DNA of 64,000 nt from Patescibacteria group bacterium (lineage in GTDB: Bacteria > Patescibacteriota > Patescibacteriia > Patescibacteriales > UBA12465): NCBI GenBank assembly GCA_041658665.1, contig JBAZZR010000001.1, forward strand, positions 128,576 to 192,575, read 5' to 3'. Numbering within the stretch: the first letter of the stretch is position 1; every line of letters begins with the position of its first letter. Both the position numbers and the translations under genes were made by a program. The notes under the pieces were generated by a model. The model searched no databases, was not told where the DNA came from, and was given only the letters and a program-made list of their open reading frames with translations. This document shows positions 40,615 through 56,108 of this stretch, in pieces.

Positions 40615-40705
40615 GGAGAGGTGGCTGAGCGGTTGAAAGCGGCAGGTTGCTAACCTGTTATACGTTTTTATTAGCGTATCAAGGGTTCGAATCCCTTCCT
40701 CTCCG
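40615..40705 (+). tRNA. tRNA-Ser (anticodon GCT), class II with a long variable arm. Its 3' end is the island integration site.
   Basis: 91 nt. GGAGAGG acceptor stem, anticodon loop TTGCTAA, variable-arm stem ATACG/CGTAT, T-arm AAGGG-TTCGAAT-CCCTT, 3' strand CCTCTCC plus discriminator G. Confidence 0.9.
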
Positions 40706-40707
40706 CA
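40688..40707 (+). repeat. attL-side copy of the 20-bp direct repeat (tRNA-Ser 3' end)
   Basis: CGAATCCCTTCCTCTCCGCA is identical to 55336-55355. Confidence 0.9.
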
Positions 40708-40735
40708 ACATCGTGCTAGCACGAGGTACTTAAAA

Positions 40736-40761
40736 ATAGAGCTTATTTAGGCTCTATTTTT
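40736..40761 (+). terminator. Island-borne terminator for the reconstituted tRNA-Ser
   Basis: ATAGAGC-ttatttag-GCTCTAT followed by TTTT. Confidence 0.6.
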
Positions 40762-40834
40762 GTTATAAAGTCGGTTTATTAAAATTTACAAAATAGGTTT
40801 TATTTGATAAAATTATAGGTATAAAGTTTTATAT

Positions 40835-41050
40835 ATGGACACACGTAAAGAACAGAGTAAAATTGGTAAACGTATAAAGGAACTTCGTTTGAAAAAGGGA
40901 TTGTCTCAGGATTTGGTGTCGAAAAAGGCAAATTTATCTTTTCAAACAATATCAAAAATAGAGTCTGGATCAACATCCAGCCCTACTATTGATACGGTTA
41001 TTAAAATCGCTAATGTTTTAGGCATTTCACTTGATGAATTAATGAAATAA
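40835..41050 (+). CDS. XRE-family HTH regulator (possible R-M controller, C-protein-like)
   Basis: 71 aa. IGKRIKELRLKKGLSQDLVSKKANLSFQTISKIESG is a Cro/C1-type HTH. It ends 4 nt before the Mod gene. Confidence 0.8.
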   Translation: MDTRKEQSKIGKRIKELRLKKGLSQDLVSKKANLSFQTISKIESGSTSSPTIDTVIKIANVLGISLDELMK

Positions 41051-41054
41051 AGTT

Positions 41055-42926: not shown

Positions 42927-42936
42927 TTGAAAAACT

Positions 42937-45150
42937 ATGCAACTAAAAGACTACCAAAGTACAGCTATAAAAAAACTTCTCTCAAGAAGCAAGGAATTAC
43001 TGGCTCAAAGTGGTGAGAAGAAAGTCATTTTCAAGGCCCCGACTGGCTCAGGTAAAACCATAATGATGGCGGAATATTTGAAGCAGCTTATTGATGATAA
43101 AGAAATTAGAACCCCCCTTTCGTTTATTTGGACCGCTCCAAGAAAACTACACACTCAAAGCAAGGAGAAGCTAGAAAAATATTATGAAGATACAAGAGCT
43201 TTAGAATGTTCAAATTTTGAAGATTTGATTAATAAACAAATCAGCGAAAATGAAATTCTATTTTTGAACTGGGAAAGTATAAACAAGAGAGACAAAAACA
43301 CCATAGTTAAAGAAAATGAAAAAGAATTTTATCTTGGTAAAATTGTAGAGAACACAAAAGAAGAGGGGCGAGAAATTGTTTTAATTATTGACGAAAGCCA
43401 CCACCACGCAACGAGCGAAATTTCGCAAGATTTAATTTCTGATATTTCTCCAAGATTAACGATTGAAGTTTCCGCTACTCCGATTATTTCAAATCCTGAC
43501 GAAATTGTTTCTGTGTCATTGGAGGATGTAAAACTGGAAGGAATGATTAAAAAATCAGTAATCCTTAACCCTAATTTTAAAAATTTTTTGTCTGGCGATA
43601 GTTTAAAAACCGCTCTTGCTGACGGAACAGATGCAATGGTGCTTGAGGAAGCAATGAAAAAGAGATTTGAAATTGTTAAAACATATAAAGATGCGGGGTT
43701 AAATATAAATCCACTTCTCTTGATTCAATTACCAGACAGAAAAACACAGCAGGAAGATTTGATAAAAGATGAAGTTGTGCGAATTTTGAAAGATAAATAC
43801 GGACTGACTACTGAAAATGGAAAACTGGCAATTTATTTGTCTGAAGAAAAAGAAAATCTTGAAAATATTGCCAAAAATGATCATGAAACCGAAGTTTTAA
43901 TTTTTAAACAAGCAATCGCTTTGGGCTGGGATTGTCCTCGCGCTCAAGTGCTGATGCTTCTTAGAGATTGGAAAAGTCTCTCATTCTCCGTGCAAACAGT
44001 CGGGCGAATTATGCGTATGCCAGAACCTGACTCGGGACACTATAAACAGGAAATCTTGAATCACGGATTTGTGTTTACAAATCTTGCTGATATTGAGATT
44101 AAGGAAGACATGGCAAAAAACTATGTAACGATTTATACCAGTCAAAGAGCAGATAGCTACGAGTCAATTAAATTAGAATCTGTTTATCGTTTGAGACAAA
44201 GAGAAAAAACTCGTTTAAGTCCGAAATTTATTAATATCTTTTTAGATGAGGCAAAGTTATATAATCTAGAAAAGAAAATCGAAACAAAAGGCCAAAAACT
44301 TGAGCTATCTTTAATTTCGGATTATGAAGCGGAGGGTGTTGATAAACTGACAAATGCGGAAATTAGAGGTGAAGCTAAAATTAACACTGAAAATGAAACA
44401 GATTTACAAAAACTCTATGATTTTTTTGTAAAAAACAATCTTTCCCCATTTTATCCCGAAGACCGTTCAATTGGCAGATTAAAAGAAGCGATTTATTACT
44501 TCTTTAGAGTTTGCCTGGGCATGGAATATACCGATCGCTTTACTGAAATAATAAATATTGTTTTAAGTCCGAAGAATGGTCAGCATTTTGTAAATGTTAT
44601 TGATAGTGCTAAAGAAAAATATATTGCCGAAACTAAAAAACGCGAAGCAGAATTGCAAAAATCAGCCGACTGGGAAGTGCCTGAAATTTTGAACTATGGC
44701 GGAAACTTCATGGAGCTTAAAACTAAATTATCAGTAATGAAGCCTTTCTATTATGATAATAAATGGAAAACAGAAGGGGCGTTTATTAAATTTCTTGAAA
44801 AATCAAATCAAATTGAATGGTGGTTTAAGAATGGCGATAGAGATGCTACGTTTTTTGCCGTGTCTTATATTGAGAATGAAGAACAAAGACCTTTTTATGT
44901 TGATTTCATAGTAAAGTATAAAGATGGAAAAATAGGTTTGTTTGATACAAAAAGTGGAAATACAATTAAAGACGCACGAGAAAAAAGTGATGGATTACAG
45001 GAATATATAAAAAAACACAAAAATATTTTTGGTGGCATTGTGGCAAATACAAATTCTAGGGATTTTTCTGGTCGATGGATGTGCTACAAAAAACAAGGCG
45101 CAGAAATTAACGCCGAAGATTTTTCCACTTGGGAATTATTGGAAATATAA
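42937..45150 (+). CDS. Type III restriction enzyme Res-like subunit (SF2 helicase plus C-terminal PD-(D/E)xK-like nuclease)
   Basis: 737 aa. Motif I FKAPTGSGKT, motif II LIIDESHH, QTVGRIMR. The C-terminal YVDFIV...GLFDTKSG resembles a D...(D/E)xK nuclease core. Confidence 0.8.
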   Translation: MQLKDYQSTAIKKLLSRSKELLAQSGEKKVIFKAPTGSGKTIMMAEYLKQLIDDKEIRTPLSFIWTAPRKLHTQSKEKLEKYYEDTRALECSNFEDLINKQISENEILFLNWESINKRDKNTIVKENEKEFYLGKIVENTKEEGREIVLIIDESHHHATSEISQDLISDISPRLTIEVSATPIISNPDEIVSVSLEDVKLEGMIKKSVILNPNFKNFLSGDSLKTALADGTDAMVLEEAMKKRFEIVKTYKDAGLNINPLLLIQLPDRKTQQEDLIKDEVVRILKDKYGLTTENGKLAIYLSEEKENLENIAKNDHETEVLIFKQAIALGWDCPRAQVLMLLRDWKSLSFSVQTVGRIMRMPEPDSGHYKQEILNHGFVFTNLADIEIKEDMAKNYVTIYTSQRADSYESIKLESVYRLRQREKTRLSPKFINIFLDEAKLYNLEKKIETKGQKLELSLISDYEAEGVDKLTNAEIRGEAKINTENETDLQKLYDFFVKNNLSPFYPEDRSIGRLKEAIYYFFRVCLGMEYTDRFTEIINIVLSPKNGQHFVNVIDSAKEKYIAETKKREAELQKSADWEVPEILNYGGNFMELKTKLSVMKPFYYDNKWKTEGAFIKFLEKSNQIEWWFKNGDRDATFFAVSYIENEEQRPFYVDFIVKYKDGKIGLFDTKSGNTIKDAREKSDGLQEYIKKHKNIFGGIVANTNSRDFSGRWMCYKKQGAEINAEDFSTWELLEI

Positions 45151-45211
45151 TTATGAGAATTAATGTATCTCCAGAAGTATTATAAAATAGTAAAAAAATA
45201 AATGGAGAGAA

Positions 45212-45874
45212 ATGAATTTAGAAAAAGCTATTATAAACATCAATCGCTCTTTAACCAAAAAACAACCAGTTTCATTTAACTCAGTCTGGATAAAATATCG
45301 CTGCAAAGTATCTTATATATTCATAATAAAAAATATTAAGACTGAATTTAATGATCCAGATTGGGATTATGTTGTTTCTCGGTTAGAAAGATGTAATCAG
45401 AAACTTTGGCTAAAGACTAGAAGAAGAAATAAAAAAGATATACCGATATATAGCGACAAAGATGAATTAGAGGTAATTTTAAAAAAGTATAATAGTAAAT
45501 TATATACATTCCTGGCTTGCCAAAATAAAGACGATAAATGTATATGTGATTGGATTAGTATTAGGCTGGTACGTATCGCCCAAAAAGGCAATTTATTGGC
45601 GAAAGATAAGATTATTATTCTGTTAAAATATCTTGTTGATCAATGGATTGAATATGACCGTAGCTTATTCAGCTGGAAGGGTTATAATGAATTAATTAAT
45701 GAGCATATAGAGGCTTATATCCGCCGTTTTCGCTATGCAGGGTCATTTATCGGATATCTTTATAGAACTCTTGAATATTCCGGCAGAGGTTTAACACCTT
45801 TAGAAAAGTTTTCTCTTGATGATATATCAAATGTTTCAGGAAAAAGGATTATTGATATTTTTATAAAAAAATAG
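45212..45874 (+). CDS. Hypothetical protein (island cargo)
   Basis: 220-aa ORF between the R-M module and the recombinase. No confident motif. Confidence 0.5.
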   Translation: MNLEKAIININRSLTKKQPVSFNSVWIKYRCKVSYIFIIKNIKTEFNDPDWDYVVSRLERCNQKLWLKTRRRNKKDIPIYSDKDELEVILKKYNSKLYTFLACQNKDDKCICDWISIRLVRIAQKGNLLAKDKIIILLKYLVDQWIEYDRSLFSWKGYNELINEHIEAYIRRFRYAGSFIGYLYRTLEYSGRGLTPLEKFSLDDISNVSGKRIIDIFIKK

Positions 45875-45885
45875 TTAATATTATT

Positions 45886-47169
45886 TTACTTAATTTCAAC
45901 CATCTTATTCTTCAACAAAATTTCTCCGTTTAAACAAGTAAGTAATTCTCGCTTCTCTTGATCATCACCCTCTTTTAATAAAAATTTAATATAGTTTTTA
46001 ACATCGACGTCGCTCACGTCGATGTTTTGATTTTTGCCAGTCGCCATCATTTGAAATTTCTTGAATCTTTTAATTTCACCCTCAATCTTATCTTGAACGG
46101 GTAACTTTTTAAAATCTAATTTCTCAACCTGTTTTTGTAATTGTTTAATTAAATCTTCTTCACTAATATAGCCAGATTTACAATTTTTATCTTTCGCCTT
46201 AGTACAGCCATAATAAATATGACGGTTAAAACCTCCATTTTTTAATTTCTTAAATTTTTCGGTTGCCGATATGCCAGAACCACATAAACCACAGGTCATA
46301 ACTTTAGTAAAAGCGAACTCGATATTTTCTCGCCTGACTAATTGGGAGTTTTTCATTTGATCCTGAACTAAATCAAACATCTCCTTTGTGATTATTGGTT
46401 CATGTTTTCCTTGATACCAATTGCCGCTTCCTCGTGGGTATTCAAAGGGGCCATAATAGAAGGTATTTTCTAATAGGCGGTAAATGTTACCTAAACTTAA
46501 ATGCTTTTTTCCGAGTTCTGTTCTAAAATTTAAATCAAATCGCAGCCAATTGTAAATCTTACGACCTGACCACTTTTCATAAGCGACTTTTTCAAACATT
46601 TGTCTGATAATGTGACCCCTGTCAGGATCGACTAAACATTGTCCTTTATGGTCAACTCGCTTTTCTTTGAAGTAACCAGTTGGTGGACAAGTCGGCCATA
46701 AGCCCATTTCGCATCTTGCCCTTAAACCTCTTTTAACGTTTATCCCTCGATTATCATTTTCTAGTTTCGCTTGAGAGCATAGAATCATGAGCAAAAACTT
46801 TTCGTTTGGGGAGTTGCTAAATGTTTGGCCAAAGGTACGAATGCTCATTAATTTTTTCTCATCCATTAAATCAACGAGTGATCCTAAGTCGCCAGCATTT
46901 CTTGAAAGTCTATCAGGGGCCCAAGTAAGAATTGAATTAAATTTCTCTTCCGCTATGTCTTTTAATAATTCCTTAAAAATAGGACGATTACCAGAATCTT
47001 TTGCAGACTTTGATTCTCGTCTAATATCAACGATTTCTAAATTTTCTCTTTCGGCAATTTGGAGCATTTCTTTAACTTGAGAATCAATTGATTGAACTTG
47101 TCGTTCGTCTGATTCAGTGCTTTTTCTAGCATACAGACAATACTTTAAGGGAATATCTAATGGAGGCAT
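45886..47169 (-). CDS. Large serine recombinase (resolvase/invertase N-domain, recombinase domain, zinc ribbon)
   Basis: 427 aa. LYARKSTESDERQVQSIDSQ (catalytic Ser region), WAPDRLSRN, and a Cys cluster CGLCGS...YYGCTK. Confidence 0.88.
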   Translation of the reverse strand: MPPLDIPLKYCLYARKSTESDERQVQSIDSQVKEMLQIAERENLEIVDIRRESKSAKDSGNRPIFKELLKDIAEEKFNSILTWAPDRLSRNAGDLGSLVDLMDEKKLMSIRTFGQTFSNSPNEKFLLMILCSQAKLENDNRGINVKRGLRARCEMGLWPTCPPTGYFKEKRVDHKGQCLVDPDRGHIIRQMFEKVAYEKWSGRKIYNWLRFDLNFRTELGKKHLSLGNIYRLLENTFYYGPFEYPRGSGNWYQGKHEPIITKEMFDLVQDQMKNSQLVRRENIEFAFTKVMTCGLCGSGISATEKFKKLKNGGFNRHIYYGCTKAKDKNCKSGYISEEDLIKQLQKQVEKLDFKKLPVQDKIEGEIKRFKKFQMMATGKNQNIDVSDVDVKNYIKFLLKEGDDQEKRELLTCLNGEILLKNKMVEIK

Positions 47170-47292
47170 ATGATTATACTTAATTATTAGTTAAATCTAC
47201 GCCTCCATTAATGACACACTTTTAAGCTTTTGCTAAGCAGTTAGCTGTTGGCAACTTGTCGATAACTTTCCCTTTAATATTAAAGGAAATAA

Positions 47293-48759
47293 CTATAAAA
47301 AATAGATTCTTGGTGGGTTTGGATAATGATCCAACAAACTATTAGCTAAATTAACAAAAGCGTCAGCTAAGTCATCATGCTTTTCAACGCCAAAGTGGAC
47401 TATTTGTTGAATTAATTCTTCTGCACCCTTTCTTGGGAAAAGTATTTGTCCACCTTTAATCATATTAGCGGTTAATACTAATCGACTACGTTTATCTTGG
47501 CTTCCTGGACGAGTTGTCATTACATTTTGGATGCCCTCAACTTTTAGTTGTTGCGGTAAAGCTTTTTGATAGGCGACATCTTCAACAACTAATCTAACAA
47601 GGTCATAGTCTTTTTTGTAGCTTTCATACATTACTTTACAAGTATCAGTTGTTTCTGGAAAATTAAGCCGTCTATTAATTATCTTTGGTAAGATATAAAT
47701 TCTATATCCTGTTTTGGTTTCAAATAGTAATCCTGGGACCATAGCAGTATAATCGGCCACGTCACTTTGTGAAATAGCAGGGTCGATGCCGATTCTAACT
47801 TCTAAATGAGATTTATAGCCTCCGTACATACCCATTCTTTCTGGAATTTCATCGTAGTAATTTATCCATTCAGGATAAATAGCTTGGTCTTCTGATGGTA
47901 CGATGTTAAGCAGATATTCTTGTTGCCAGGTAATTTCATTGCCGACCTTTTTCCTTTCAATTTCTACATCTTTTTCAGTTGGATATTTGCCAGGCCAAAG
48001 ACAGACACCTTTCTTGTTTATTAAAGGATAATATAAAAAGTGGCCATCAATAACGTCTTTTTCTCGTTCTTCTTTTAGTCTCATAAGCAGCGAATCTTCA
48101 TGCAAAAGATTGCCGACTATAACTAGCCTTGTATCTTTATCGCCAGCAGGGATTACTTCGCCTTTAAGCCATTGATAGGTTTTATTGCGACCATCTCTAG
48201 TTTTAGTTGAGCTAATATCTTCCACATCGTCGCAAATAATTAAGTCAGGTCGGTTTTCGTAATGCCTAATACCTCGAATGCTTTGATCAACTGAAGCAAC
48301 GGTAATTCTAGCATCGGTATTTGAGAAAACGATTGATTGTGCGCCCCATTCATCGCTATTTTCTCGAAATGGGCCCAAGTCTTTTTTAAGCAGGTCATTA
48401 TCTTCTAGTTCTCGGCGCAAGTTCATCATGTGCTGTTTGGCTTGGGCTTGAGTTTGGCAGAAGATAACAACAAACTTCTTTTGCTGTTTACCAAGGATTG
48501 CCCAAATCGGATAAGCGGCGGTGATAATTGTTGATTTACCTGATCCTCTAAAAGCCACTACAAACAAATTTTCTTTGTGACTGGATTCAATTAAAGAAAT
48601 TATGTTTTTCTGAAAATCCGCAGTTTCATACTTAACATAATGGGCGTAATAGAAGTGAAAGAAATAGGAGAAACTTTCTCTAGTTATCGCTGTTCTTATC
48701 TTCTTGTCTTGGGTCATCTGTTCCACCATCTCCTGGGGAATCATTTTGTTTACCATCAT
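47293..48759 (-). CDS. Phage terminase large subunit
   Basis: 488 aa. Walker A-like AFRGSGKST, Walker B LIICDDVED, and acidic residues of the C-terminal nuclease region (VVEDVAYQ, HDDLADAF). The true start is probably an internal Met, because the ORF overlaps the upstream gene by 80 nt. Confidence 0.85.
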   Translation of the reverse strand: MMVNKMIPQEMVEQMTQDKKIRTAITRESFSYFFHFYYAHYVKYETADFQKNIISLIESSHKENLFVVAFRGSGKSTIITAAYPIWAILGKQQKKFVVIFCQTQAQAKQHMMNLRRELEDNDLLKKDLGPFRENSDEWGAQSIVFSNTDARITVASVDQSIRGIRHYENRPDLIICDDVEDISSTKTRDGRNKTYQWLKGEVIPAGDKDTRLVIVGNLLHEDSLLMRLKEEREKDVIDGHFLYYPLINKKGVCLWPGKYPTEKDVEIERKKVGNEITWQQEYLLNIVPSEDQAIYPEWINYYDEIPERMGMYGGYKSHLEVRIGIDPAISQSDVADYTAMVPGLLFETKTGYRIYILPKIINRRLNFPETTDTCKVMYESYKKDYDLVRLVVEDVAYQKALPQQLKVEGIQNVMTTRPGSQDKRSRLVLTANMIKGGQILFPRKGAEELIQQIVHFGVEKHDDLADAFVNLANSLLDHYPNPPRIYFL

Positions 48760-49180
48760 ATGTATTTTTATTATTAATTATTAATTGCTCATCGGCTGGC
48801 AATAGTTTAGCCAGTTTCAAAGCGTGTTTTACTACTTCTGCTTGCGCAGGAGTTAGTTCGTCGGTATCTTCTGTTTTTGAAGTTACCTCAATCTTATCTT
48901 TAAACCTTGGATTGCGATGTCTAAGCCAAAAGCTAATCGCTGACCAGTTTTTCTCTTTGATCATCGTTAAGAGCTGGCTTTCACTCATATCGTTTACCAA
49001 AGCTTCGCCTTCGGCTAAGGCTTCATCCATTGCTTTCGAGAATTCTTTGTCCTCTCGTTTCCAGCGATAAATGCTGTTACGAGATACGCCTGATTTTTCG
49101 CAAGCAACTAGAACGATTGGTACTTTTTTGAGTTCGTTAAAGAACGCTTCTTGAAGTCTGCTTTTCTTAGACATGCTCAA
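48680..49180 (-). CDS. HTH DNA-binding protein in the terminase small subunit position
   Basis: 166 aa. GVSRNSIYRWKREDKEFSKAMDEA is an HTH-type motif, and the gene lies immediately upstream of TerL on the same strand. Confidence 0.55.
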   Translation of the reverse strand: MSMSKKSRLQEAFFNELKKVPIVLVACEKSGVSRNSIYRWKREDKEFSKAMDEALAEGEALVNDMSESQLLTMIKEKNWSAISFWLRHRNPRFKDKIEVTSKTEDTDELTPAQAEVVKHALKLAKLLPADEQLIINNKNTYDGKQNDSPGDGGTDDPRQEDKNSDN

Positions 49181-50441
49181 CCACCTCCTTTCTGCCTGTT
49201 AATTTTCGATATCTCGCTATCGCCAAATCACAGAAAACTGGCTCAAGCTCCATTGCATAAACTTTTCTCTTTAATTGTTCACCCGCTATAATCGTGCTGG
49301 CTGATCCAGAGAAAGAATCAAGGATAATGTCGCCTGGCTTGGTACAGCGCCTTATAGCCTTTTCGTAGAGCTTTGGGGGCTTGCTGGTGGCGTGTTCGTA
49401 GTCTTTGCCTGAAATACGCCTGGTAGGCCAAATATCTAAAGAATCATAGACATCTTCAAACATTTCATTACCCGTACCCAGCTCTTTATTTAAAACCTCG
49501 TTATAATTTTTAATGTCAGGATTGATGTATGGTTTGCCTTTAACACCATAGACAGCAGGTTCATAGCATTTATTAAATGCGACCTTTGGTGTTGGATTCT
49601 GTGAATTTTTAAGCCACAGACAAACCCGTTTATTAATTATTCCTAGTTCTCGATATAGTTCTTGAAATAAGCCAATGTATGTTTGGTCGCACCAGTAGAA
49701 GATATGAGTATCAGGTTTAGTGTTTGGTAGAGCGGCTAATAGGGAGTTCTTGATGAACTGCTTATATTCCTCATAACTCCTGTTGTCATTTACAGCGCCA
49801 CCATAATCGTTTTTACCACCAATACCCTTGGAATAGTCCAGCTTAATGTTATAGACAGGGTCACTAAATATCATTGAAGCCTTATCGTCGCCAAATAACC
49901 GTTTGAGATTATCGGGGTTAGTAGAATCACCACAAAGTAGGCGATGTCCGCTTAAATGTATTAGGTCGCCTGGTTTAGTTTTTGGTGTCTTTATCTTTTT
50001 TAACTCCGCCTCAACATCAAAGTCTTCGTCTTTAACTTCTAATTCCTTATCCCAGAAATGAGATAAATCGACCTGGTCAAAACCAATGTCAACCAATAGA
50101 TCTAAATCAAAAGATTTTAGCTTTTCAAAATCCCAGTCACCACCTAAAGCATTACTGGCAATTAAATATCTTTTTGCTTCATCTTCGGTTAGTTGACGAT
50201 TAGGAATTCTCACGTCAATTAGTTCTTCGCCTCTACCAAGGATTTGAAGGGCCTTAACCCGCTGGTGGCCGGCCAAAATTTTGCCATTTAAGTCGATGGC
50301 TGGAATTTCGACTAAATTAAATTTAGCCAAGCTCTTTTTAAGGTCCGACATTTGCTTGTCGTTGATTACTCTAGGGTTAACTTCTTGGGGAACCAGGTCG
50401 TTAACTTTTTTTTGCACTGTGTGCCATTCTAATTTCTTCAT
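49167..50441 (-). CDS. ParB-like nuclease domain fused to a DNA methyltransferase (phage-type orphan methylase)
   Basis: N-terminal ParB-like LAGHQRVKAL. Methyltransferase motif IV-like FSDPVYN and motif I ILDSFSGSASTIIAGE. The start is taken at the internal ATG 50441 (MKKLEWH) rather than the track start at 50519. Confidence 0.8.
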   Translation of the reverse strand: MKKLEWHTVQKKVNDLVPQEVNPRVINDKQMSDLKKSLAKFNLVEIPAIDLNGKILAGHQRVKALQILGRGEELIDVRIPNRQLTEDEAKRYLIASNALGGDWDFEKLKSFDLDLLVDIGFDQVDLSHFWDKELEVKDEDFDVEAELKKIKTPKTKPGDLIHLSGHRLLCGDSTNPDNLKRLFGDDKASMIFSDPVYNIKLDYSKGIGGKNDYGGAVNDNRSYEEYKQFIKNSLLAALPNTKPDTHIFYWCDQTYIGLFQELYRELGIINKRVCLWLKNSQNPTPKVAFNKCYEPAVYGVKGKPYINPDIKNYNEVLNKELGTGNEMFEDVYDSLDIWPTRRISGKDYEHATSKPPKLYEKAIRRCTKPGDIILDSFSGSASTIIAGEQLKRKVYAMELEPVFCDLAIARYRKLTGRKEVVEHV

Positions 50442-50605
50442 AGAATTTTTAGTTAAATTAATTAAATTATTTTTTACAAACAAAAAAGCCCATCCCACAC
50501 ATGAAACAGGCCCAGACATGAAGTCTAAGACTATTTCTTGCGCGGAATAGGCATGGCTTTTGGCGCTACTCTATTCTCTTTGCGACGCTGTTATTAGGTT
50601 TTTAA

Positions 50606-51004
50606 TTATCTTTTTTCTTTTTCAATTCGTCTATGTATTCTTCGTCCCTGTTTACTGTCCATAAATTGCGTGGCGTCCTTTCCAAGAAAAACGGGCATGT
50701 TATGAGGCACAGATATAATCACTCTTTTACCCTCTTTTTGATACTTTTCAACCATTTCTAACAGATGCGGATCATTAGTTATGTTCATCATTAGATTGAA
50801 TTCGCCATTCTTTAAATTAGTCTCTTGCTCGGGTATAGGGAATATAGCTCTTCCTGGCTCCATGGCTTCTATTTTTTTACTCATGCTTTTACCCGCAAAT
50901 TCTGGTACTCGGATGTTTGTATGTAATTGAATATCTGTGAGCTGGATGATTACATCCCCATTTTTAGGTGGTGTTTGTGCCGTTTTTATATCTAATATCT
51001 TCAT
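50606..51004 (-). CDS. Hypothetical protein, first gene of the leftward island operon
   Basis: 132-aa ORF divergent from the repressor gene. Its start lies 2-3 nt downstream of the predicted TSS of a consensus promoter. Confidence 0.6.
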   Translation of the reverse strand: MKILDIKTAQTPPKNGDVIIQLTDIQLHTNIRVPEFAGKSMSKKIEAMEPGRAIFPIPEQETNLKNGEFNLMMNITNDPHLLEMVEKYQKEGKRVIISVPHNMPVFLGKDATQFMDSKQGRRIHRRIEKEKR

Positions 51005-51013
51005 ACAAAATCA

Positions 51014-51042
51014 ATTATATATTAAGTAGTGTAAAATGTCAA
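51014..51042 (-). promoter_or_regulatory. Consensus sigma70 promoter for the leftward operon
   Basis: The minus strand reads TTGACA (51042-51037), 17 nt, TATAAT (51019-51014). The ATG is at 51004, so the transcript is nearly leaderless. Confidence 0.6.
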
Positions 51043-51053
51043 ATAGTTTGACA
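51037..51053. promoter_or_regulatory. Palindromic operator candidate
   Basis: TGTCAAA-tag-TTTGACA is a perfect 7-3-7 inverted repeat. Its left half is the -35 of the leftward promoter. Its right half is a TTGACA on the plus strand. Confidence 0.5.
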
Positions 51054-51060
51054 AAAAGAC

Positions 51061-51089
51061 TTGAAAAATAATTAATAGTGTGCTATAAT
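51061..51089 (+). promoter_or_regulatory. Sigma70 promoter for the repressor gene
   Basis: TTGAAA (51061-51066), 17 nt, TGcTATAAT (extended -10, TATAAT at 51084-51089). The ATG is at 51098, so the transcript is nearly leaderless. Confidence 0.6.
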
Positions 51090-51097
51090 TAAGACAT

Positions 51098-51736
51098 ATG
51101 AATATAATACAAACCCAATTATTAAATCTTATCGCTTCTACTCCAGAAATGGGGTCGTTCAGCCTTAGAAAGATAGCTGAATTATTAGGGGCAAAAGGAA
51201 AGCCTCAAATCGCTAAATATCATCTTCAGCAATTAGAAAAACGAGGCTTAATCCAAATGAATTTAGACGAAGGTGTGCTGAAACTAGTCCAGAAAGGATA
51301 TAATCATACCACTAAAAGTCCGTTATTTGCCATCCCAGTTGTTGGAGCAGCCAATTGTGGTCCAGCCGTCACATATGCTGATCAAAAAGTGGACAGCTAC
51401 CTAAAAATATCTTCCAGTCTTCTGCCGAGAAATAAAAATCGTTTGTTTGCCATAAAAGCCGATGGTGATTCCATGAACCGAGCAAAGATTAATGAAAAAA
51501 ATATTGAAACTGGTGATTATGTTTTAGTTGATAGAGAGGCTAGTAAGTACAGTGATGGTGATGTCGTTCTAGCTATTATCGACGGGCTGGCAACAATAAA
51601 AGAGTTTTATCCTGATAAAGCTCATAACAGAATTATATTAAAAGCTAATTCTGACCATGAGTATATGCCAATTTATATTGGTGAGGATGATCAATTTATT
51701 ATTAATGGAAAGGTCGTTGATGTAATTAAAAATTAA
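51098..51736 (+). CDS. LexA/CI-like repressor (winged-helix N-domain plus S24 peptidase domain)
   Basis: 212 aa. N-terminal KIAELLGAKGKPQIAKYHLQQLEKRGLI. C-terminal ADGDSMNRA (Ser nucleophile) and a later conserved Lys region (RIILKAN). Confidence 0.85.
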   Translation: MNIIQTQLLNLIASTPEMGSFSLRKIAELLGAKGKPQIAKYHLQQLEKRGLIQMNLDEGVLKLVQKGYNHTTKSPLFAIPVVGAANCGPAVTYADQKVDSYLKISSSLLPRNKNRLFAIKADGDSMNRAKINEKNIETGDYVLVDREASKYSDGDVVLAIIDGLATIKEFYPDKAHNRIILKANSDHEYMPIYIGEDDQFIINGKVVDVIKN

Positions 51737-51746
51737 CTATAAAAAT

Positions 51747-51962
51747 ATGAGTAACCTAAATTATTTAAGAAATGCGGGTAAGCAATGGACATCAGAAGAA
51801 GTCAAGCAACTAAAACAGCTTGCAAAAGACAATACTCCGACTAGAGTTATTGGCTTTAAGCTTGGCCGTCCAGTTGGTGGTGTGCAAAGCAAAGCCTCTG
51901 AATTAGGCGTTGGATTAAAACCAGTTAATCAATCGCCATATAATCGTACAAAAAAGAAATAA
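51747..51962 (+). CDS. Small basic hypothetical protein
   Basis: 71-aa ORF, 10 nt after the repressor gene. It is followed by a perfect 10-bp hairpin (51981-52003). Confidence 0.5.
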   Translation: MSNLNYLRNAGKQWTSEEVKQLKQLAKDNTPTRVIGFKLGRPVGGVQSKASELGVGLKPVNQSPYNRTKKK

Positions 51963-52137
51963 TTATTTGAAAATCTAAATAAGCCACCAAATTTTGGTGG
52001 CTTACTCAGGTGTTCATTGAATTAGAATTCCTTTCCCTTGGTTCTAGGTCGGTATTCAATAAAATCAGCACAGTATACTTAGTAATTGTATTGTACATGA
52101 TTTGCACCGATTATTCAAATTCTAGCATTAGACCAAT

Positions 52138-52281
52138 ATGTCCAATTCGAAGTCATTTTTACTGGGCAGGGATTCTAAAACTGGTGAGTTTATTCCTGTT
52201 GACGAAGCTCGTCGCAGACCGAATACAACTACCGTTGAAAGAGTTCCTAAGCCTGGACGCGGCGACACTGATCGAAAGTAA
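52138..52281 (+). CDS. Small ORF (47 aa) absent from the supplied track, paralogous to the C-terminal part of 52322-52744
   Basis: ATG 52138 to TAA 52279-52281 translates MSNSKSFLLGRDSKTGEFIPVDEARRRPNTTTVERVPKPGRGDTDRK. The neighbour has LLGRDSRTGEFIPVSETRRRPNTTSVERIPKPG. Differences look mostly synonymous or conservative, which supports this reading frame. Confidence 0.6.
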   Translation: MSNSKSFLLGRDSKTGEFIPVDEARRRPNTTTVERVPKPGRGDTDRK

Positions 52282-52321
52282 TAGGATTAAATCCTAAAAT
52301 AATGTTTCTGAGAATTGCTCA

Positions 52322-52744
52322 ATGGAAAGGATGAGCAGTTCTCAAAACAAATTTAAATTATATATGAAAAAGAAAAACGATATATTCTTTATCGCTTCAA
52401 AATCTGGTCGAGATAGTAATACCAGAGCTTCTTTTTATGATGAAAAAGGACACAATATTGAACATGGTGATGTAAAAATATCGTACAAATCATCAGTTAG
52501 TGGACGCTTTGTTACTAGACCTTATACAACTTTATTGGGCAGAGATTCTAGGACTGGTGAATTTATTCCAGTTAGCGAAACTCGTCGTAGACCAAACACA
52601 ACTTCTGTCGAGAGAATTCCAAAGCCTGGTTATGGTGGAAGTTCTAGAACTATTATTAAAAAAACATCAAAGAGTAAGGCGGAAAAATCAAGCCCCGTTT
52701 TTAAGGATATGAAAAAGGGTTCGTCAATTAGCTTTAAAAAATAG
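52322..52744 (+). CDS. Hypothetical basic protein carrying the GRDS-TGEFIPV...RRRPNTT-VERIPKPG motif
   Basis: 140-aa ORF. The motif is shared with the small ORF upstream. Confidence 0.65.
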   Translation: MERMSSSQNKFKLYMKKKNDIFFIASKSGRDSNTRASFYDEKGHNIEHGDVKISYKSSVSGRFVTRPYTTLLGRDSRTGEFIPVSETRRRPNTTSVERIPKPGYGGSSRTIIKKTSKSKAEKSSPVFKDMKKGSSISFKK

Positions 52745-53242
52745 ATGGAGGCCAAAGAATACAGTCTAATAATGAAGGGCATTATCCCGGCAACCCAGGA
52801 AGCTTTTAAGGGTGGGGATAAAATTGATCCAGAAGTTAGAAAAGGTGAAAAAGAGTGTGTGAAAATTTTTAAAAAAGCAGTTTCAGATTATGTCGCCAGA
52901 GACAAGCCGTCTGACTTATTTCCATCAAACGGCAAATTGTATGTGGCTATTGTTCAATTTTTTATTTCAGATAAAAAAGATTATCAACATCGTGATGTAG
53001 ATAATATGGCAAAGACTGTATTAGACGCTTTAAACCAAGGAGGATTGTATGGAGATGATAGCCAAGTTAGAACACTATTAGTTAGTAAAATAATTGATTT
53101 GAAAAAAGTTCCTCAGAATTTAGGATTTATTTATATAAAAATTTTAGACGACGGAGAAGATGAAATTTTTACCGAAAATATTATTGATCAAGCCGTCGTG
53201 ATGTATAATGATATGAGAGATAAGAATGTTGAAGTTTCATAA
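52745..53242 (+). CDS. rusA: RusA-family Holliday junction resolvase
   Basis: 165 aa. HRDVDNMAKTVLDALNQGGLYGDDSQV matches the RusA core (RRDLDNLQKAAFDAL...DDAQV in E. coli RusA). Confidence 0.8.
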   Translation: MEAKEYSLIMKGIIPATQEAFKGGDKIDPEVRKGEKECVKIFKKAVSDYVARDKPSDLFPSNGKLYVAIVQFFISDKKDYQHRDVDNMAKTVLDALNQGGLYGDDSQVRTLLVSKIIDLKKVPQNLGFIYIKILDDGEDEIFTENIIDQAVVMYNDMRDKNVEVS

Positions 53243-53984
53243 ATATATGATTTATCACGATAAAATTAATAAGAATAATGCTGTAGAATGGGAGCTTGTT
53301 GCTTTTCTTTTATATTTTATATTCTTAGTAATAACAATTTTTACTATTAAGAATTTATTAGCAGTTTTATATATACATATTGCTTTAATGATATTATTCA
53401 GTATTTATTATTTTGGTAGAGAATTATTTTATATTTTGATTGCCCCACTATTTGTAATATTGTATCCATTAAATTCTTTTCAAACTAAGAGATTTCTAAA
53501 AAAAGTTCAATTAAATAAATCTTGCCATACGGTTGTTGTGTTAGCTCATTCAAATTGGCGCAAACTTGAGGCTTGGATAAAACCGAATTTTAATGTTAGT
53601 GAGATAAAATTATTATATAAATATTTAAAAAAGAGAGGTGATGATTTTTCTTTTTACCCAAAAGCAACACTGGATGACGTGAATGATTTAATGGCTGATC
53701 CTAACATAAAAGAGATTTATTTCTATGGTCATGGGTCATCACATGTTTTTCAGCTAGGCACAGGAGAATATCTTTATTACTGTGAATTTAGTAATGGTAA
53801 ATACGAAAAAGATTTTGTTCATCAAATGCATTGTGGCACAGAAGATGGTAAAAGCTTAGTTGATTATGTTGTGCCAGATAAAAATAAAAAGGAATGTTTT
53901 TGGGTTAAAAAATCTATTACGGGTCCATATATAGAAAAGATTCTAAAGAAAAAAATAAAAGAAATTGGCAAGGACAAAGTATAA
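53226..53984 (+). CDS. Hypothetical membrane protein with a soluble C-terminal domain
   Basis: 252 aa. Three N-terminal hydrophobic segments. The C-terminal domain contains IYFYGHGSSH and later Cys residues (YYCEF, QMHCGTEDG). Confidence 0.55.
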   Translation: MLKFHKYMIYHDKINKNNAVEWELVAFLLYFIFLVITIFTIKNLLAVLYIHIALMILFSIYYFGRELFYILIAPLFVILYPLNSFQTKRFLKKVQLNKSCHTVVVLAHSNWRKLEAWIKPNFNVSEIKLLYKYLKKRGDDFSFYPKATLDDVNDLMADPNIKEIYFYGHGSSHVFQLGTGEYLYYCEFSNGKYEKDFVHQMHCGTEDGKSLVDYVVPDKNKKECFWVKKSITGPYIEKILKKKIKEIGKDKV

Positions 53985-54029
53985 AATTAACGAAATTTGG
54001 AAACAATTTTCTATTATTAAAATAAATAT

Positions 54030-55004
54030 ATGTTCAAAAAAAATTTAAATAAAATACCTAAGGATATTATTGAAAAAATTAGTCGCATAGAAGGCAATAA
54101 TATAATAGTTGGCTGTGCAAAGAAATTTAAAGCAGATTATTTATCATCTGGTGGCCTTAATCATTTAGGAATATTTTTAAATGATAGCGGTCTTACATTC
54201 CCTGCGAGTATTATTCCTTCTGCGGAACAGGGAAAATACTCTGGCAGAAACATTTACGGTTATGAAGAAATTCGCAAGGATCTTCCCAAAGAGACTCATT
54301 ATAATAGCGTAGAATCTCCTAACTATGGTGATTCATACAATGGTACTCACACAGTGAATCTTCCTTATGAAAAATACCCAAGAGATTTTCACTCACCAAA
54401 AGAATTAGAAATTTTGATAAATTGTGAAAACGGTCGACCAGGCTTACAAGAATATGTTATTACTTTTCAGGTTCAAGAAATTATCAATAAAGATGATGAA
54501 AAATTTAATTCTAGCTTACTTGAAAATCTGAATATTTTACAAGAAAATATTGGATTTTGTGATATTGAGTCAGCAGATACGCCAATGGAAGAATATGCAA
54601 AATCATTACATGTTTCTTGGGAAATATTACCACCAGGCACGGCCGACGAAGCAATTGAAAGAATATTCCGTGGTAAAACACCAACACAGCAACAAAAAGA
54701 TACAACAAAAGAGAGGTATGATTTTTTTCAATTGCTTAAACCAAAAAGTTTTGTTTTTGGTCAGAGTGGTTTTAGGAGATACTTTGGAGCACTTTTAGAG
54801 GATGATTTAGTTGTTTTTGAAAATATTGAATATGGTAACGCTGTGTATATTTTATATGATAACTGGGAAGAGCTTAGTAAACTCACTCGTTTAGATTTAA
54901 TGTCTGGTAGGTTTGGTGATTCATTCGAAAGAGTAATACATAATTCTGGCTGGAAGGGTAAGGTTAGGACAATTATTGCTCATAGACGAGAATTAGGATC
55001 TTAA
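54030..55004 (+). CDS. Hypothetical protein (last island gene)
   Basis: 324-aa ORF. No motif recognised. Confidence 0.6.
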   Translation: MFKKNLNKIPKDIIEKISRIEGNNIIVGCAKKFKADYLSSGGLNHLGIFLNDSGLTFPASIIPSAEQGKYSGRNIYGYEEIRKDLPKETHYNSVESPNYGDSYNGTHTVNLPYEKYPRDFHSPKELEILINCENGRPGLQEYVITFQVQEIINKDDEKFNSSLLENLNILQENIGFCDIESADTPMEEYAKSLHVSWEILPPGTADEAIERIFRGKTPTQQQKDTTKERYDFFQLLKPKSFVFGQSGFRRYFGALLEDDLVVFENIEYGNAVYILYDNWEELSKLTRLDLMSGRFGDSFERVIHNSGWKGKVRTIIAHRRELGS

Positions 55005-55181
55005 TCCAAAGATTACATTATCTTGTAACCTTTTTCTTTATTGTCGTGTCACTTTTGTCACTTTTAAGAAAAACCATAGCGCACGAGGATCTTATTTATT
55101 AAAGCCTCAAAAAATCACCGAAAAGCCTTGCTGGGCTTGCCGAAATAACGGTTCCAGCCCGAGGTAGCCCGCTAACAAAAA

Positions 55182-55203
55182 AGACCCAACCTGCGTTGGG
55201 TCT
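55182..55203. terminator. Bidirectional hairpin terminator inside the island right end
   Basis: Perfect 9-bp stem AGACCCAAC / GTTGGGTCT, loop ctgc, flanked by AAAAAA and TTTTTT. Confidence 0.7.
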
Positions 55204-55211
55204 TTTTTGTT

Positions 55212-55335
55212 AATGTTGAGGTTCGGAAGAGATTCGAAAGCCGGAGGCGATGCGCACTTGTGCGCCGCCGAGGCCGGGTCGGGGCGCTTGCTTTTCGCCG
55301 AGCGAAGCGAAAGTGAAAAGCTTAGCGACCGTGAC
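55212..55335. other. GC-rich, hairpin-rich non-coding segment at the island right end (possible structured RNA or recombination site region)
   Basis: Composition contrasts sharply with the A/T-rich surroundings. Hairpins: GGCG-at-GCGCA-cttg-TGCGC-CGCC (about 55246-55269) and GCTTTTC...GAAAAGC (55290-55296 / 55315-55321). Only low-complexity ORFs overlap it on both strands. Confidence 0.3.
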
Positions 55336-55355
55336 CGAATCCCTTCCTCTCCGCA
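55336..55355 (+). repeat. attR-side copy of the 20-bp direct repeat
   Basis: CGAATCCCTTCCTCTCCGCA is identical to 40688-40707. Upstream sequence does not continue the tRNA T-stem. Confidence 0.9.
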
Positions 55356-55363
55356 GTTTGTAA

Positions 55364-55388
55364 ATAGCCCTAAACATGGGCTATTTTT
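55364..55388 (+). terminator. Displaced original tRNA-Ser terminator
   Basis: ATAGCCC-taaacat-GGGCTAT followed by TTTT, 8 nt after the attR repeat. Confidence 0.65.
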
Positions 55389-55392
55389 AATA

Positions 55393-55426
55393 GGAGGTTT
55401 ATCACTTTGGAACGTCATGCTATAAT
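55393..55426 (+). promoter_or_regulatory. Promoter-like motif copy 1 (GGAGGTTTAT-N18-TATAAT)
   Basis: GGAGGTTTATCAC...TATAAT (55421-55426), 20 nt upstream of ATG 55447. Copies at 60576 and 62106 have the same spacing. Confidence 0.5.
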
Positions 55427-55446
55427 ATTAACATAAATATTTATAT

Positions 55447-56055
55447 ATGAAAAAAAAGATTATTTTATTTTTACTACTATCGATTATTCTTATAGCTGAA
55501 GTATATTATTTATTCGCCAAAGGTGATTTTAAAATTACTAATAATTCTATTGAATTTTTTCAGGGTAGTATAACTAGTAGAGATGAAGAAAATAAAATAT
55601 CCGGACTAACAAGTTTAAATGAATCTAAGACAGATCCTAAAACTGGAGTTACTTCCATTTCAGTTGAAGAGGGCTCTCTTTTTATAGAGCCTATTGAATT
55701 AACTCTGCACGATCGAAAGGTTTATTTTGTAAATAAAAGTGACAATAGAACAATCTCAATTCCCATAAATAAACCTACTAACTCGCAGATTACACCAGCC
55801 ATAAGTAACCCGTATATAAAATACCCATTTGTATTTTTTGCGTTTATTGATTTTATAAATACTAATAAGACTGATTATACAATTTTAGTTTATAACTTAA
55901 CCTCACAAAAAGAAACATTTCTTGATGTAGTGACTTGTAAAGGAGCTTTTATAACAGATGTTGCCTATAATGATGGTATTCTATATTGGAGCCAATATAA
56001 AACATGGTCTGATTCTTGCTCGGGAAATTTTAAGAAAAAAGTTAACTTAGACTAA
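55447..56055 (+). CDS. Hypothetical secreted/membrane-anchored protein
   Basis: 202 aa. N-terminal MKKKIILFLLLSIILIAEVYYLFA signal/anchor. Confidence 0.6.
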   Translation: MKKKIILFLLLSIILIAEVYYLFAKGDFKITNNSIEFFQGSITSRDEENKISGLTSLNESKTDPKTGVTSISVEEGSLFIEPIELTLHDRKVYFVNKSDNRTISIPINKPTNSQITPAISNPYIKYPFVFFAFIDFINTNKTDYTILVYNLTSQKETFLDVVTCKGAFITDVAYNDGILYWSQYKTWSDSCSGNFKKKVNLD

Positions 56056-56070
56056 TACTTCTATTAAAAA

Positions 56071-56100
56071 TCGTTCCAACTACGTCCCCCACTCTCCGCA
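56071..56100 (+). repeat. Degenerate tRNA-Ser 3'-end-like remnant (copy A)
   Basis: CGTTCCAACTACGTCCCCCACTCTCCGCAG. Its last 17 nt match the 3' end of tRNA-Ser(TGA) (63930-63947) at 15/17 positions by my alignment. It is 24/30 identical to the copy at 60509-60538 and is followed by a hairpin terminator. Confidence 0.55.
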
Positions 56101-56108
56101 GATTAAAA

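Follow-up and report, generated by a model that had tools for sequence, protein, structure and literature searches.

The 64,000-nucleotide (nt) stretch analysed here (the window) comes from contig JBAZZR010000001.1 of a Patescibacteria group bacterium (assembly GCA_041658665.1, positions 128,576 to 192,575) and carries, on its plus strand, a tRNA-Ser(GCT) gene followed by an inserted island with restriction-modification (RM) and prophage genes. At the far end of the island a GC-rich block precedes a second copy of the tRNA 3' end. The GC fraction reaches 0.55 at 55100-55299 and 0.525 at 55200-55399, against 0.21-0.36 in the flanks, and the first-pass annotation of this DNA had rightly described an abrupt block at 55100-55335, which measures 55% GC against about 30%. 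It had taken the block as a single island right end, a description that holds for 55100-55172 only. The block is composite, and 55173-55355 is a separate cassette of about 180 nt. We conclude with confidence that this cassette is a conserved, structured and protein-less module found at tRNA 3' ends and independent of the island. Its high GC content is as expected for paired RNA in an AT-rich genome.

All three stems named in the first-pass annotation are present. One, TAACAAAAAAGACCCAAC / GTTGGGTCTTTTTTGTTA (55173-55190 / 55195-55212), spans 18 bp with 100% complementarity; the others, GGCGATGCGCA.. / ..TGCGCCGCC and GCTTTTCGC / GTGAAAAGC, are helix P2a (55246-55256 / 55261-55269) and hairpin 2 (55290-55298 / 55313-55321) of the fold described below. 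Over 55090-55360 the plus strand folds with -114.8 kcal/mol (z = -6.4, 200 shuffles) and the minus strand with z = -4.95.

Copies of the element follow tRNA genes

In order to find relatives, the translated minus-strand open reading frame (ORF) of the block was searched against a collection of 5.8 billion proteins. Besides the ORF itself, just two partial matches were returned, in other frames and contexts, and both of these "proteins" are translated homologous DNA (loci L003 and L004). In L004, a tRNA-Gln(CTG) gene is followed by homologous GC-rich sequence that closes with a copy of that tRNA's 3' end. L003 comes from a relative that shares the window's upstream and downstream flanks; here only ~270 nt separate tRNA-Ser(GCT) from the host flank, the island is absent, and the gap holds a different GC-rich block, likewise closing with a tRNA 3' end copy. 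An exact 20-mer from the core retrieved 65 loci, with one genome per species, and ~60 of these are true members, nearly all from metagenome-assembled genomes (MAGs) of Patescibacteria (Falkowbacteria, Parcubacteria and other groups); several genomes hold three copies. A two-motif pattern gave 90 further stretches from metagenomes. Overall, 121 distinct copies were collected in Patescibacteria (candidate phyla radiation, CPR) genomes and metagenomes.

Wherever a tRNA was detected near a copy, the copy lies downstream of it and in the same orientation. For 69 copies the tRNA is at most 200 nt upstream and the island is absent; 17 isoacceptors are represented, serving Ala, Ser, Gln, Leu, Pro, Val, Asp, Cys and Lys, and the distance from tRNA end to left-arm end has a median of 63 nt. 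From 5' to 3' the unit consists of an A/T-flanked hairpin, a short spacer, a left arm, the core and a right arm, with the core laid out as AAAGCCGGAG, variable hairpin, CGAGGCCGGGTCGGGGCGCTT, variable hairpin, CTTAGCGACCGTGAC. The right arm copies the tRNA without mismatch; in all copies tested it starts exactly at C56 of the T-loop, shows no identity to the tRNA upstream of C56 and stops at the tRNA end plus 0-5 nt, which makes it 19-24 nt long; identities longer than this mark tandem units. Reverse-complementing the first 10-13 nt of the right arm gives the left arm, and in the window GGAAGAGATTCG is antisense to the 3' half of the T-loop, the 3' strand of the T-stem and 2 nt of the acceptor strand. 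It tracks T-loop variants, with TTCAAGT giving ACTTGAA (L010), TTCGATT giving AATCGAA (L022) and TTCAAAT giving ATTTGAA (L061). Since the tracking is as reverse complement, the left arm is no direct copy of the tRNA's own 5' T-stem strand. The structured core is clamped between antisense and sense copies of one tRNA's T-arm/acceptor 3' segment. A T-loop insertion or a split or permuted tRNA gene was considered and rejected on three grounds, namely an intact upstream tRNA, the absence of both D-arm and anticodon arm, and a left arm that reverse-complements the T-loop instead of copying it directly (L010, L022, L061).

The first module of the unit is a bidirectional terminator-like hairpin, which stands directly 3' of the tRNA in island-free copies. 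A CTGC loop is kept in 63 of 110 copies, usually within the context AC-CTGC-GT, and 90 distinct stems were counted; intrinsic terminators normally have no conserved loops. About 30% of copies ("type 2") carry a GC-rich hairpin immediately before the left arm, and the same CTGC loop was seen there, in a GC-rich hairpin without T-runs. Several Ser-linked type-2 copies have the complement of the acceptor 3' strand in front of the GC-rich hairpin, a layout that recalls the top half of a tRNA, with an acceptor-like helix, a single hairpin and a T-stem-like helix; several type-2 copies have a weak hairpin or none between tRNA and element. Among type-1 copies, a TAnnnT motif starts at -25/-26 relative to the core in 33 of 78, and a terminator-like hairpin directly follows the right arm in 67 of 115 copies overall.

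The window carries a single copy of this first family. ARAGORN placed three tRNAs in the whole window and found neither a tRNA nor a tmRNA at 55100-55400, and on inspection of the sequence the element was not seen after the other two tRNAs. The Rfam scan and BLASTN comparison that the first-pass annotation had suggested, for recognising a known RNA or a foreign origin, were both negative. At gathering thresholds Rfam 15, whose models cover tRNA, tmRNA, RNase P, SRP, 6S, Y RNA, HEARO/omega RNA and the known ribozymes among others, gave no family at 54900-55500, and at E<=10 the block gave only short matches far below threshold, mostly to the terminator hairpin (for example mir-5879, 28 bits against a threshold of 97). 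No blastn match to the element was found among phage and plasmid records, and three element motifs had no exact match in 2.9 million viral contigs. Full-text literature searches turned up no description of a tRNA-linked structured repeat in CPR/Patescibacteria and no tRNA-matched guide-like element.

Linked genes were sought by all-against-all clustering of ORFs over ~60 loci of 8 kb. No protein gene recurs beside the copies, the clusters being just spurious ORFs of the element and syntenic housekeeping genes, and a linked mobility gene was dropped as a candidate since none was recurrent. The ORFs upstream of copies that lie far from a tRNA are mixed (serine recombinases, a reverse transcriptase (RT), IS110, methylases). 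Gene callers place spurious ORFs across these elements on both strands; in the ORF clustering, 25 and 22 loci, respectively, fell into such "protein" clusters, and one such ORF is already in a public protein collection.

The arms and core fold into a three-way junction

The tRNA-sense strand folds as a three-way junction, in which P1 is formed by the two arms and P2/P2a and P3/hairpin 2 by the core (Table 1). RNAalifold agrees with this fold. Covariation was tested on 57 sequences with a model comprising P1, P2/P2a and P3/hairpin 2. Paired cells amount to 86%, against 27-44% when the partners are slid by 1-3 columns, and 21 of the 41 pairs vary on both sides. Double-sided changes number 177, compared with 49.5 in shuffles, and the observed value was reached by none of 500 shuffles. 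Compensatory change was found in 9/9 pairs of P2a and 8/11 pairs of P1. P3, which holds an invariant G.U, is almost invariant, for its 5' strand partly as an artefact of how copies were collected. The element therefore shows the conserved structure with compensatory change that characterises structured non-coding RNA. The first-pass suggestion of an island-encoded structured RNA thus survives in one half: a non-coding, conserved and structured nucleic acid with strong covariation is present, but the island does not encode it.

With regard to the strand, the invariant G.U of P3 is one indication, and one column alternates between U.G (23 copies), C-G (18) and U-A (14). At three sites Watson-Crick pairs swap with tandem G.A/A.G, for example ATTCG versus ATGAG opposite CGAAT, and on the opposite strand these G.A sites would be pyrimidine mismatches. 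The covariance model R1 matches on the tRNA-sense strand alone. Judged from these patterns, the strand that folds appears to be the tRNA-sense strand. A hammerhead-like or reduced RNase P-like core was also considered and rejected, as Rfam gives it no support and the AAGCC/GGCUU pairing shows no covariation in the alignment; GAAAGCCGG and GGCUUAGCG bear a resemblance to P4 strands.

Table 1 Features of the tRNA-Ser(GCT) locus in the window (positions are those of the window)
Feature	Position	Strand	Basis or remark
tRNA-Ser(GCT), the element's own gene	40615-40706	+	ARAGORN; Rfam tRNA, 61.7 bits
Direct repeat, copy 1, CGAATCCCTTCCTCTCCGCA	40688-40707	+	Last 20 nt of tRNA-Ser, including 2 trailer bases
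Inserted island between tRNA and element, outside the element	40708-55172		Left limit approximate
Tandem 9-mers TGTCACTTT, two copies	55047-55064	+	Right arm of the island; candidate recombinase arm-type sites of the island
Diverged pseudo-tRNA 3' end GGTTCCAGCCCGAGGTAGCCCGC, right terminus of the island	55150-55172	+	12/23 positions equal to the tRNA-Ser 3' end
Module 1: perfect 18-bp hairpin with A-run, T-run and CTGC loop	55173-55212	+	
Extended -10-like box TGtTAATGT, putative promoter	55208-55216	+	26 nt before the core; consensus match
Left arm GGAAGAGATTCG, 5' strand of P1	55225-55236	+	12 nt, 92% complementary to 55336-55347
Conserved GC-rich core	55237-55335	+	Alignment, RNAalifold, pair counts; covariance model R1, 132.5 bits, + strand only
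Core: J1/2 AAA, P2 and P2a	P2 55240-55242 / 55272-55274; P2a 55246-55256 / 55261-55269		
Core: P3 and hairpin 2	P3 55277-55288 / 55324-55336; hairpin 2 55290-55298 / 55313-55321		
Right arm CGAATCCCTTCCTCTCCGCA, 3' strand of P1	55336-55355	+	Exact copy of the tRNA from C56 to the 3' end, plus 2 trailer bases
Hairpin AAATAGCCC / GGGCTATTT with T-run	55362-55391	+	Original tRNA terminator and host flank; same flank in L003

Arm tracking, core conservation and a second family

Both arms follow their cognate tRNA over time. In L045 the T-arm has changed and both arms have changed along with it. Lagging left arms, which still match an older or different version of the tRNA, occur in L023, L048 and L052, and in L025 the right arm has drifted away from the tRNA sequence and the left arm pairs with this diverged version; P1 pairing is therefore maintained in its own right.

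Syntenic loci at tRNA-Ala(TGC) and tRNA-Ser(GGA) were compared in a sample conditioned on the presence of the element, so that its occurrence in all sampled genomes is to be read accordingly. At these loci the neighbouring proteins are 48-60% identical (with one partial match at 78%), and the cores retain 73-95% nucleotide identity. This degree of conservation, seen in sequence comparison, would indicate selection or continual homogenisation. Within single genomes, cores at different tRNAs are 93-99% identical and yet stand next to different hairpin/spacer modules, even across types, with L017/L028 and L041/L056 as near-identical pairs of this kind. Such a pattern suggests that cores may undergo gene conversion with one another. 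Fast retargeting by transposition was set aside as an explanation, since the hairpin/spacer modules differ and the two types share cores, which gene conversion explains better.

Units also occur in arrays. Full tandem units are found in L009 and L015, and mixed arrays are present as well. Some units are truncated inside the core, right after ..CGAGGCC(GG): L144 260-365, L078 1320-1420 and L070 (reverse strand) 1620-1505. In L144 and L078 the truncated unit is the distal member of a tandem pair, and in L070 it is followed by a small inserted ORF and then by an intact unit.

A second family became apparent at tRNAs without the first one. Detected as an exact copy of the tRNA's last 13 nt lying ~190-370 nt downstream, mostly at ~200 nt, it accompanies 13 of ~96 such tRNAs in the fetched loci, which had not been selected for it. 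Its GC-rich core is different (..TGGTTGGAAGCGAGA..GGACGCCAACCCTGGACAAGTGAGC-hairpin-GCGAG..CGGAAAT) and its design is the same, with a left arm xxGGGATTCGAAC that again tracks the T-loop (in L083, GTCCGAAT gives ATTCGGAC). A GUGAGC-hairpin-GCGAG module is common to both families. Members were found in L003 (reverse strand, 2545-2270), L017, L026, L031, L040, L083, L089, L110, L114, L123, L131 and L153, and in L003, the relative of the window organism, the second family occupies the orthologous tRNA-Ser(GCT). Both families stand in tandem in L153 and in L114/L043. As the second family shares the layout of the first, the design is general in these genomes.

Many element-bearing MAGs are titled "uncultured Gammaproteobacteria" (L005, L007, L013, L015, L016 and other third-party annotation (TPA) records). 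Low GC, the genes they carry and the synteny shared with Falkowbacteria loci suggest that this label is wrong and that the MAGs belong to Patescibacteria. Mis-binning is the probable explanation for the short contigs assigned to Acholeplasmataceae (L029), Peptococcaceae (L053) and Planctomycetota (L039).

The island and other mobile DNA at the same tRNA

Pfam matches in the island comprise a helix-turn-helix (HTH) regulator, type III RM mod/res, terminase, methylase, S24 repressor and RusA. A large serine recombinase is encoded at 45886-47169 on the minus strand, and no tyrosine integrase was found in the island, which is missing from the syntenic locus L003. On sequence grounds we place the island right end between 55172 and 55173, where its pseudo-tRNA end abuts the hairpin of the element. 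In island-free loci, the tRNA end is followed by (A/T)AAC and then by the A-run hairpin, which in the window starts at 55173. Homologues of the island end occur in L005, L039 and L049, with related ends ..CCCGAGTTGCCCGC (L039), ..CTCGAGTAGCCCGC (L049) and ..CCCGGTTAGCCCGC (L005). At the site of the window's GTCACTTTT repeats these three loci have GTCTCATTT repeats, and GTCTCATTT GTCTCATT stands at the equivalent place of the island end. The homologous ends adjoin type-1 units in two of the loci (L005, L039) and a type-2 unit in the third (L049); island and cassette are therefore separate modules. The tandem 9-mers reported in the first-pass annotation just upstream of the block are indeed there, as part of the island end rather than of the element.

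The island itself looks composite, consisting of a type III RM module with ORF 45212-45874 and of a degraded prophage with the large serine recombinase, terminase, methylase, S24 repressor and RusA. ORF 45212-45874 has a homologue in L039, located immediately before the same island terminus, which suggests that the prophage part was inserted within an older RM island. Where elements target tRNAs, newer ones lie beside the tRNA and older ones are pushed outward (10.1101/2020.12.28.424599; PMC4383910), and the order of island and cassette in the window agrees with this.

On the left side, 40688-40767 of the window (the last 20 nt of tRNA-Ser and the next 60 nt) matches L057 (reverse strand, 161-240) with 90% identity. 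In L057, which is from an unrelated MAG, these 80 nt follow the right arm of a cassette, so the left limit of the island is imprecise, and an earlier assignment of 40708-40767 as island left arm was dropped. The shared 80 nt comprise a 12-nt palindrome CGTGCTAGCACG and a terminator, and may be another small conserved module or what remains of the left end of an island. The next gene in L057, read from its translation alone, is what we take to be a glutamate dehydrogenase.

Further traces of insertion surround these cassettes. A second diverged tRNA-Ser-like 3' end, GTTCCAACTACGTCCCCCACTCTCCGCAG, lies in the window at 56073-56101 (with a terminator to about 56130), after ORF 55447-56055 (202 aa). 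With this pseudo-end and terminator following an ORF, 55358-56101 looks like another small element integrated at the same tRNA hot spot. A pseudo-end of this kind, with the form "GTTC-N-..GTCCC..CTCCGC", closes other inserted DNA before cassettes in L029, L032, L033, L042, L067 and L070, and a Gln-type variant ..CCGAGC does so in L037, L050 and L101. Mobile DNA between tRNA and cassette was seen in L101 (1879-2760), L151 and L149. L101 encodes a 293-aa reverse transcriptase (Pfam RVT_1), apparently of the type found in diversity-generating retroelements (DGR-like); an IS110-family transposase and a 533-aa large serine recombinase are the other cases. Mobile DNA has also inserted into the right arm in L023, and right arms are truncated in L016, L025, L028, L032, L036 and L045.

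Relation to known elements

We file the element among the integrative cassettes that target tRNA ends; known systems share single features only with it. The displaced tRNA 3' fragments catalogued by Islander (PMC4383910) likewise place a tRNA 3' copy at the distal boundary, and tycheposons, tandem elements split by partial tRNAs, likewise stack outward with the newer beside the tRNA (10.1101/2020.12.28.424599). Unlike either, the element measures ~180 nt, has no integrase and no cargo, and possesses a conserved structured core, an added antisense copy of the target and deep retention at orthologous loci.

Integron attC sites and cassette arrays resemble it in being arrays of imperfect inverted-repeat units that fold on one strand, depend on structure and extend from a fixed site. 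The attC boxes RYYYAAC / GTTRRRY are not seen, however, the element arms xxGGGATTCG / CGAATCCCxx being the tRNA T-arm; in contrast to integron cassettes the core is strongly conserved, there are no ORFs and the anchor is a tRNA gene. No integron integrase (IntI) recurred beside the arrays in the ~60 loci of 8 kb. The forked hairpin of CTX-phage attP(+), used by XerCD, likewise has inverted target-like segments ~100 nt apart and a one-strand fold, and after integration it leaves an inverted segment, a spacer and a direct segment at one end, as in the element. Here the target is a tRNA gene instead of dif, one half-site is present and no phage genome is attached. Two complete inverted recombination sites, each with both half-sites, are not found: what P1 pairs with its complement is the 3' half of the T-loop, the 3' strand of the T-stem and 0-3 nt from the acceptor, extending in type-2 copies up to the whole acceptor.

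Cis-mobilisable elements (CIMEs) are att-flanked, kilobase-sized decay remnants of a particular integrative and conjugative element (ICE) without recombination genes. The element is likewise without a recombinase and flanked by direct repeats of its target (19-24 nt), but it is small, conserved, multi-copy and structured, and occurs across at least 17 tRNA species. The properties of miniature inverted-repeat transposable elements (MITEs) and repetitive extragenic palindromes (REPs) are not found, as the core ends are no mutual inverted repeats and the paired arms derive from the target; all copies are located at a tRNA 3' end or beside a tRNA-like one. The split tRNA genes of Nanoarchaeum have GC-rich complementary leaders; in our case the upstream tRNA is intact with nothing to join, and there is no bulge-helix-bulge motif. 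Bacterial Y RNA (YrlA, PMC4201824) is likewise a small structured RNA with a tRNA-like segment. The element differs from both in having no T-loop, D-arm or anticodon arm and no Rfam match to Y RNA or tRNA. Lastly, the omega RNAs of TnpB/IscB and the bridge RNA or seekRNA of IS110 also combine a conserved structured scaffold with ~20 nt, placed after or inside it, that match the insertion target. Unlike in these, no TnpB, IscB or IS110 is linked (the single IS110 in L151 is incidental), Rfam gives no match, and the target-matching segment is paired to its own complement.

Weighing the explanations

Three improbable explanations can be weighed together. The block could be the right arm of the island or prophage, derived from its attP, or an RNA of the island, with 55337-55357 as island attR, as the first-pass annotation had proposed. 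Its position between island genes and the tRNA 3' repeat agrees with this, as do the island-like ends beside the element in L005, L039 and L049, and the 20-nt repeat is real; it is, however, the right arm of the element. We hold this explanation to be very improbable: at least 69 copies directly follow a tRNA gene with nothing between, in L003 the same tRNA and flank enclose a cassette but no island, and the island has its own terminus (55150-55172), homologues of which abut type-1 and type-2 cassettes. The exclusive co-occurrence with the island, contiguity with its terminus and presence in phage, plasmid and viral collections expected of an attP arm were not observed. That one of the overlapping ORFs (55107-55418 on the minus strand or 55207-55425 on the plus strand) encodes a small protein has next to no probability, even though a gene caller annotated the minus-strand ORF in a Logan assembly (L002 8366-8677). 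Neither ORF has a Pfam match, the minus-strand ORF has just the two partial matches among 5.8 billion proteins despite the widespread DNA, and in the copies indels ignore frame, stem changes are compensatory and element length varies from 120 to 173 nt over 57 copies without favouring multiples of 3; the view of both ORFs as spurious was thus correct, and the check for a conserved coding signal gave neither homologues nor a kept frame. Hardly more speaks for GC-richness that arose by chance or for DNA captured from a high-GC organism. The 20-mer probe did match five high-GC genomes or contigs (L012, L038, L054, L062 and L065: three actinobacterial genomes and two MAG contigs labelled Burkholderiaceae and delta proteobacterium), but these chance matches have nothing of the rest of the element. 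Full-length copies all lie in contigs of low GC and Patescibacteria type, in a few cases from bins that bear the name of another phylum, and there they stand beside tRNAs and covary.

The reading that we favour, as the probable one, is that the cassette at tRNA 3' ends gives rise to a small structured RNA in the sense orientation, as far as sequence patterns can tell. It draws support from the constant placement of copies behind tRNAs, the covarying fold, the slow divergence of cores at syntenic loci, the independence from the island, the -10-like box at a set distance in type-1 copies and the terminator that comes after many right arms. The RNA would be about 135-170 nt long. Type-1 copies would be transcribed from their own extended -10 box, with a start at the 5' end of the left arm, where P1 begins. 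Type-2 copies would be reached by read-through from the tRNA; many of them have no strong terminator after the tRNA and so would be co-transcribed with it. Transcription would stop at what was once the tRNA's own terminator, in the window the putative terminator hairpin downstream of the right arm. The cassette may have come in by inserting at the T-loop/3' end and duplicating the last ~20 nt, in the manner of tRNA-targeting integrative elements, and the RM/prophage island would have integrated later at the tRNA end, pushing the cassette 14.5 kb away. Since both arms stay matched to the cognate tRNA, that tRNA's 3' segment or its gene is probably what the RNA acts on or through, perhaps as a mimic plus antisense of that segment.

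Several points weigh against this RNA reading. The copies were found by exact conserved motifs, so that the conservation of P3 and of the whole family is overstated, and collection by motif presence leaves empty sites outside the sample. The promoter box is a consensus match, partly shared by descent, and type-2 copies are without it. Arrays in which whole, truncated and mixed-family units occur are more reminiscent of mobile DNA than of a gene for a host RNA, and no partner protein emerged, no protein family being recurrent at the ~60 loci. Once two columns are set aside, G.U and A.C are about equally frequent (29 against about 24), which leaves those columns and the G.A motifs as the basis of the strand call, and this evidence fits RNA and single-stranded DNA alike.

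The main alternative, possible if rather unlikely, is a non-autonomous cassette that recombines as folded single-stranded DNA, like an integron attC site or the CTX-phage attP hairpin. The paired arms would rebuild a duplex T-arm/acceptor segment, a recombinase encoded elsewhere would join the hairpin to the tRNA gene, and the cassette would thereby be inserted with a tRNA 3' copy left at its distal end. The order of tRNA, body, inverted arm, structured spacer, direct arm and host flank is that of an integration product of a single-strand hairpin att site. The tandem arrays of like and unlike units, each closed by a tRNA 3' copy and with truncated distal units, also speak for it, as do the families that differ at tRNA-Ser(GCT) from one related genome to another (window, L003, L023, L043/L114), the strand-specific fold that tolerates G.T pairs, and the use of the right arm by other mobile elements as an integration site (L023 and the truncated-arm loci). 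On the other hand, no recombinase gene recurs near the copies, the three motifs find no counterpart in the viral contigs, P1 rebuilds one half-site only (T-loop half, T-stem and acceptor), and the free unit would measure just ~180 nt. The core is, moreover, much more conserved than in attC sites, copies are kept at orthologous loci across deep divergence, and the near-identical cores with differing modules (L017/L028, L041/L056) point to gene conversion instead of recent whole-unit transposition. The RNA reading and the single-stranded DNA cassette are compatible and do not exclude each other.

Only tentatively, we propose that both families represent a new class of tRNA-matched, protein-less module in which the matched arms are the working part. 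The arms could guide insertion, maintenance or copy-correction of the cassette at the tRNA gene, in an RNA- or single-stranded-DNA-guided process that involves a factor encoded elsewhere. Another possibility is that their target is the tRNA itself, for which they would serve as a spare 3' half, as a decoy of that half or as an antisense clamp.

Conclusions

For the annotation of these genomes, the elements create false "attR" sites that mislead the mapping of island boundaries, and they yield spurious ORFs in MAG annotations. Patescibacteria genomes of about 1 Mb have little spare room and yet keep several copies of the element together with at least one sister family. If the element acts as an RNA, it would be a widespread, unannotated RNA class with a built-in tRNA link in a major and poorly understood branch of the bacteria; if it is a recombination cassette, it would represent a new, protein-less way to target tRNA genes.

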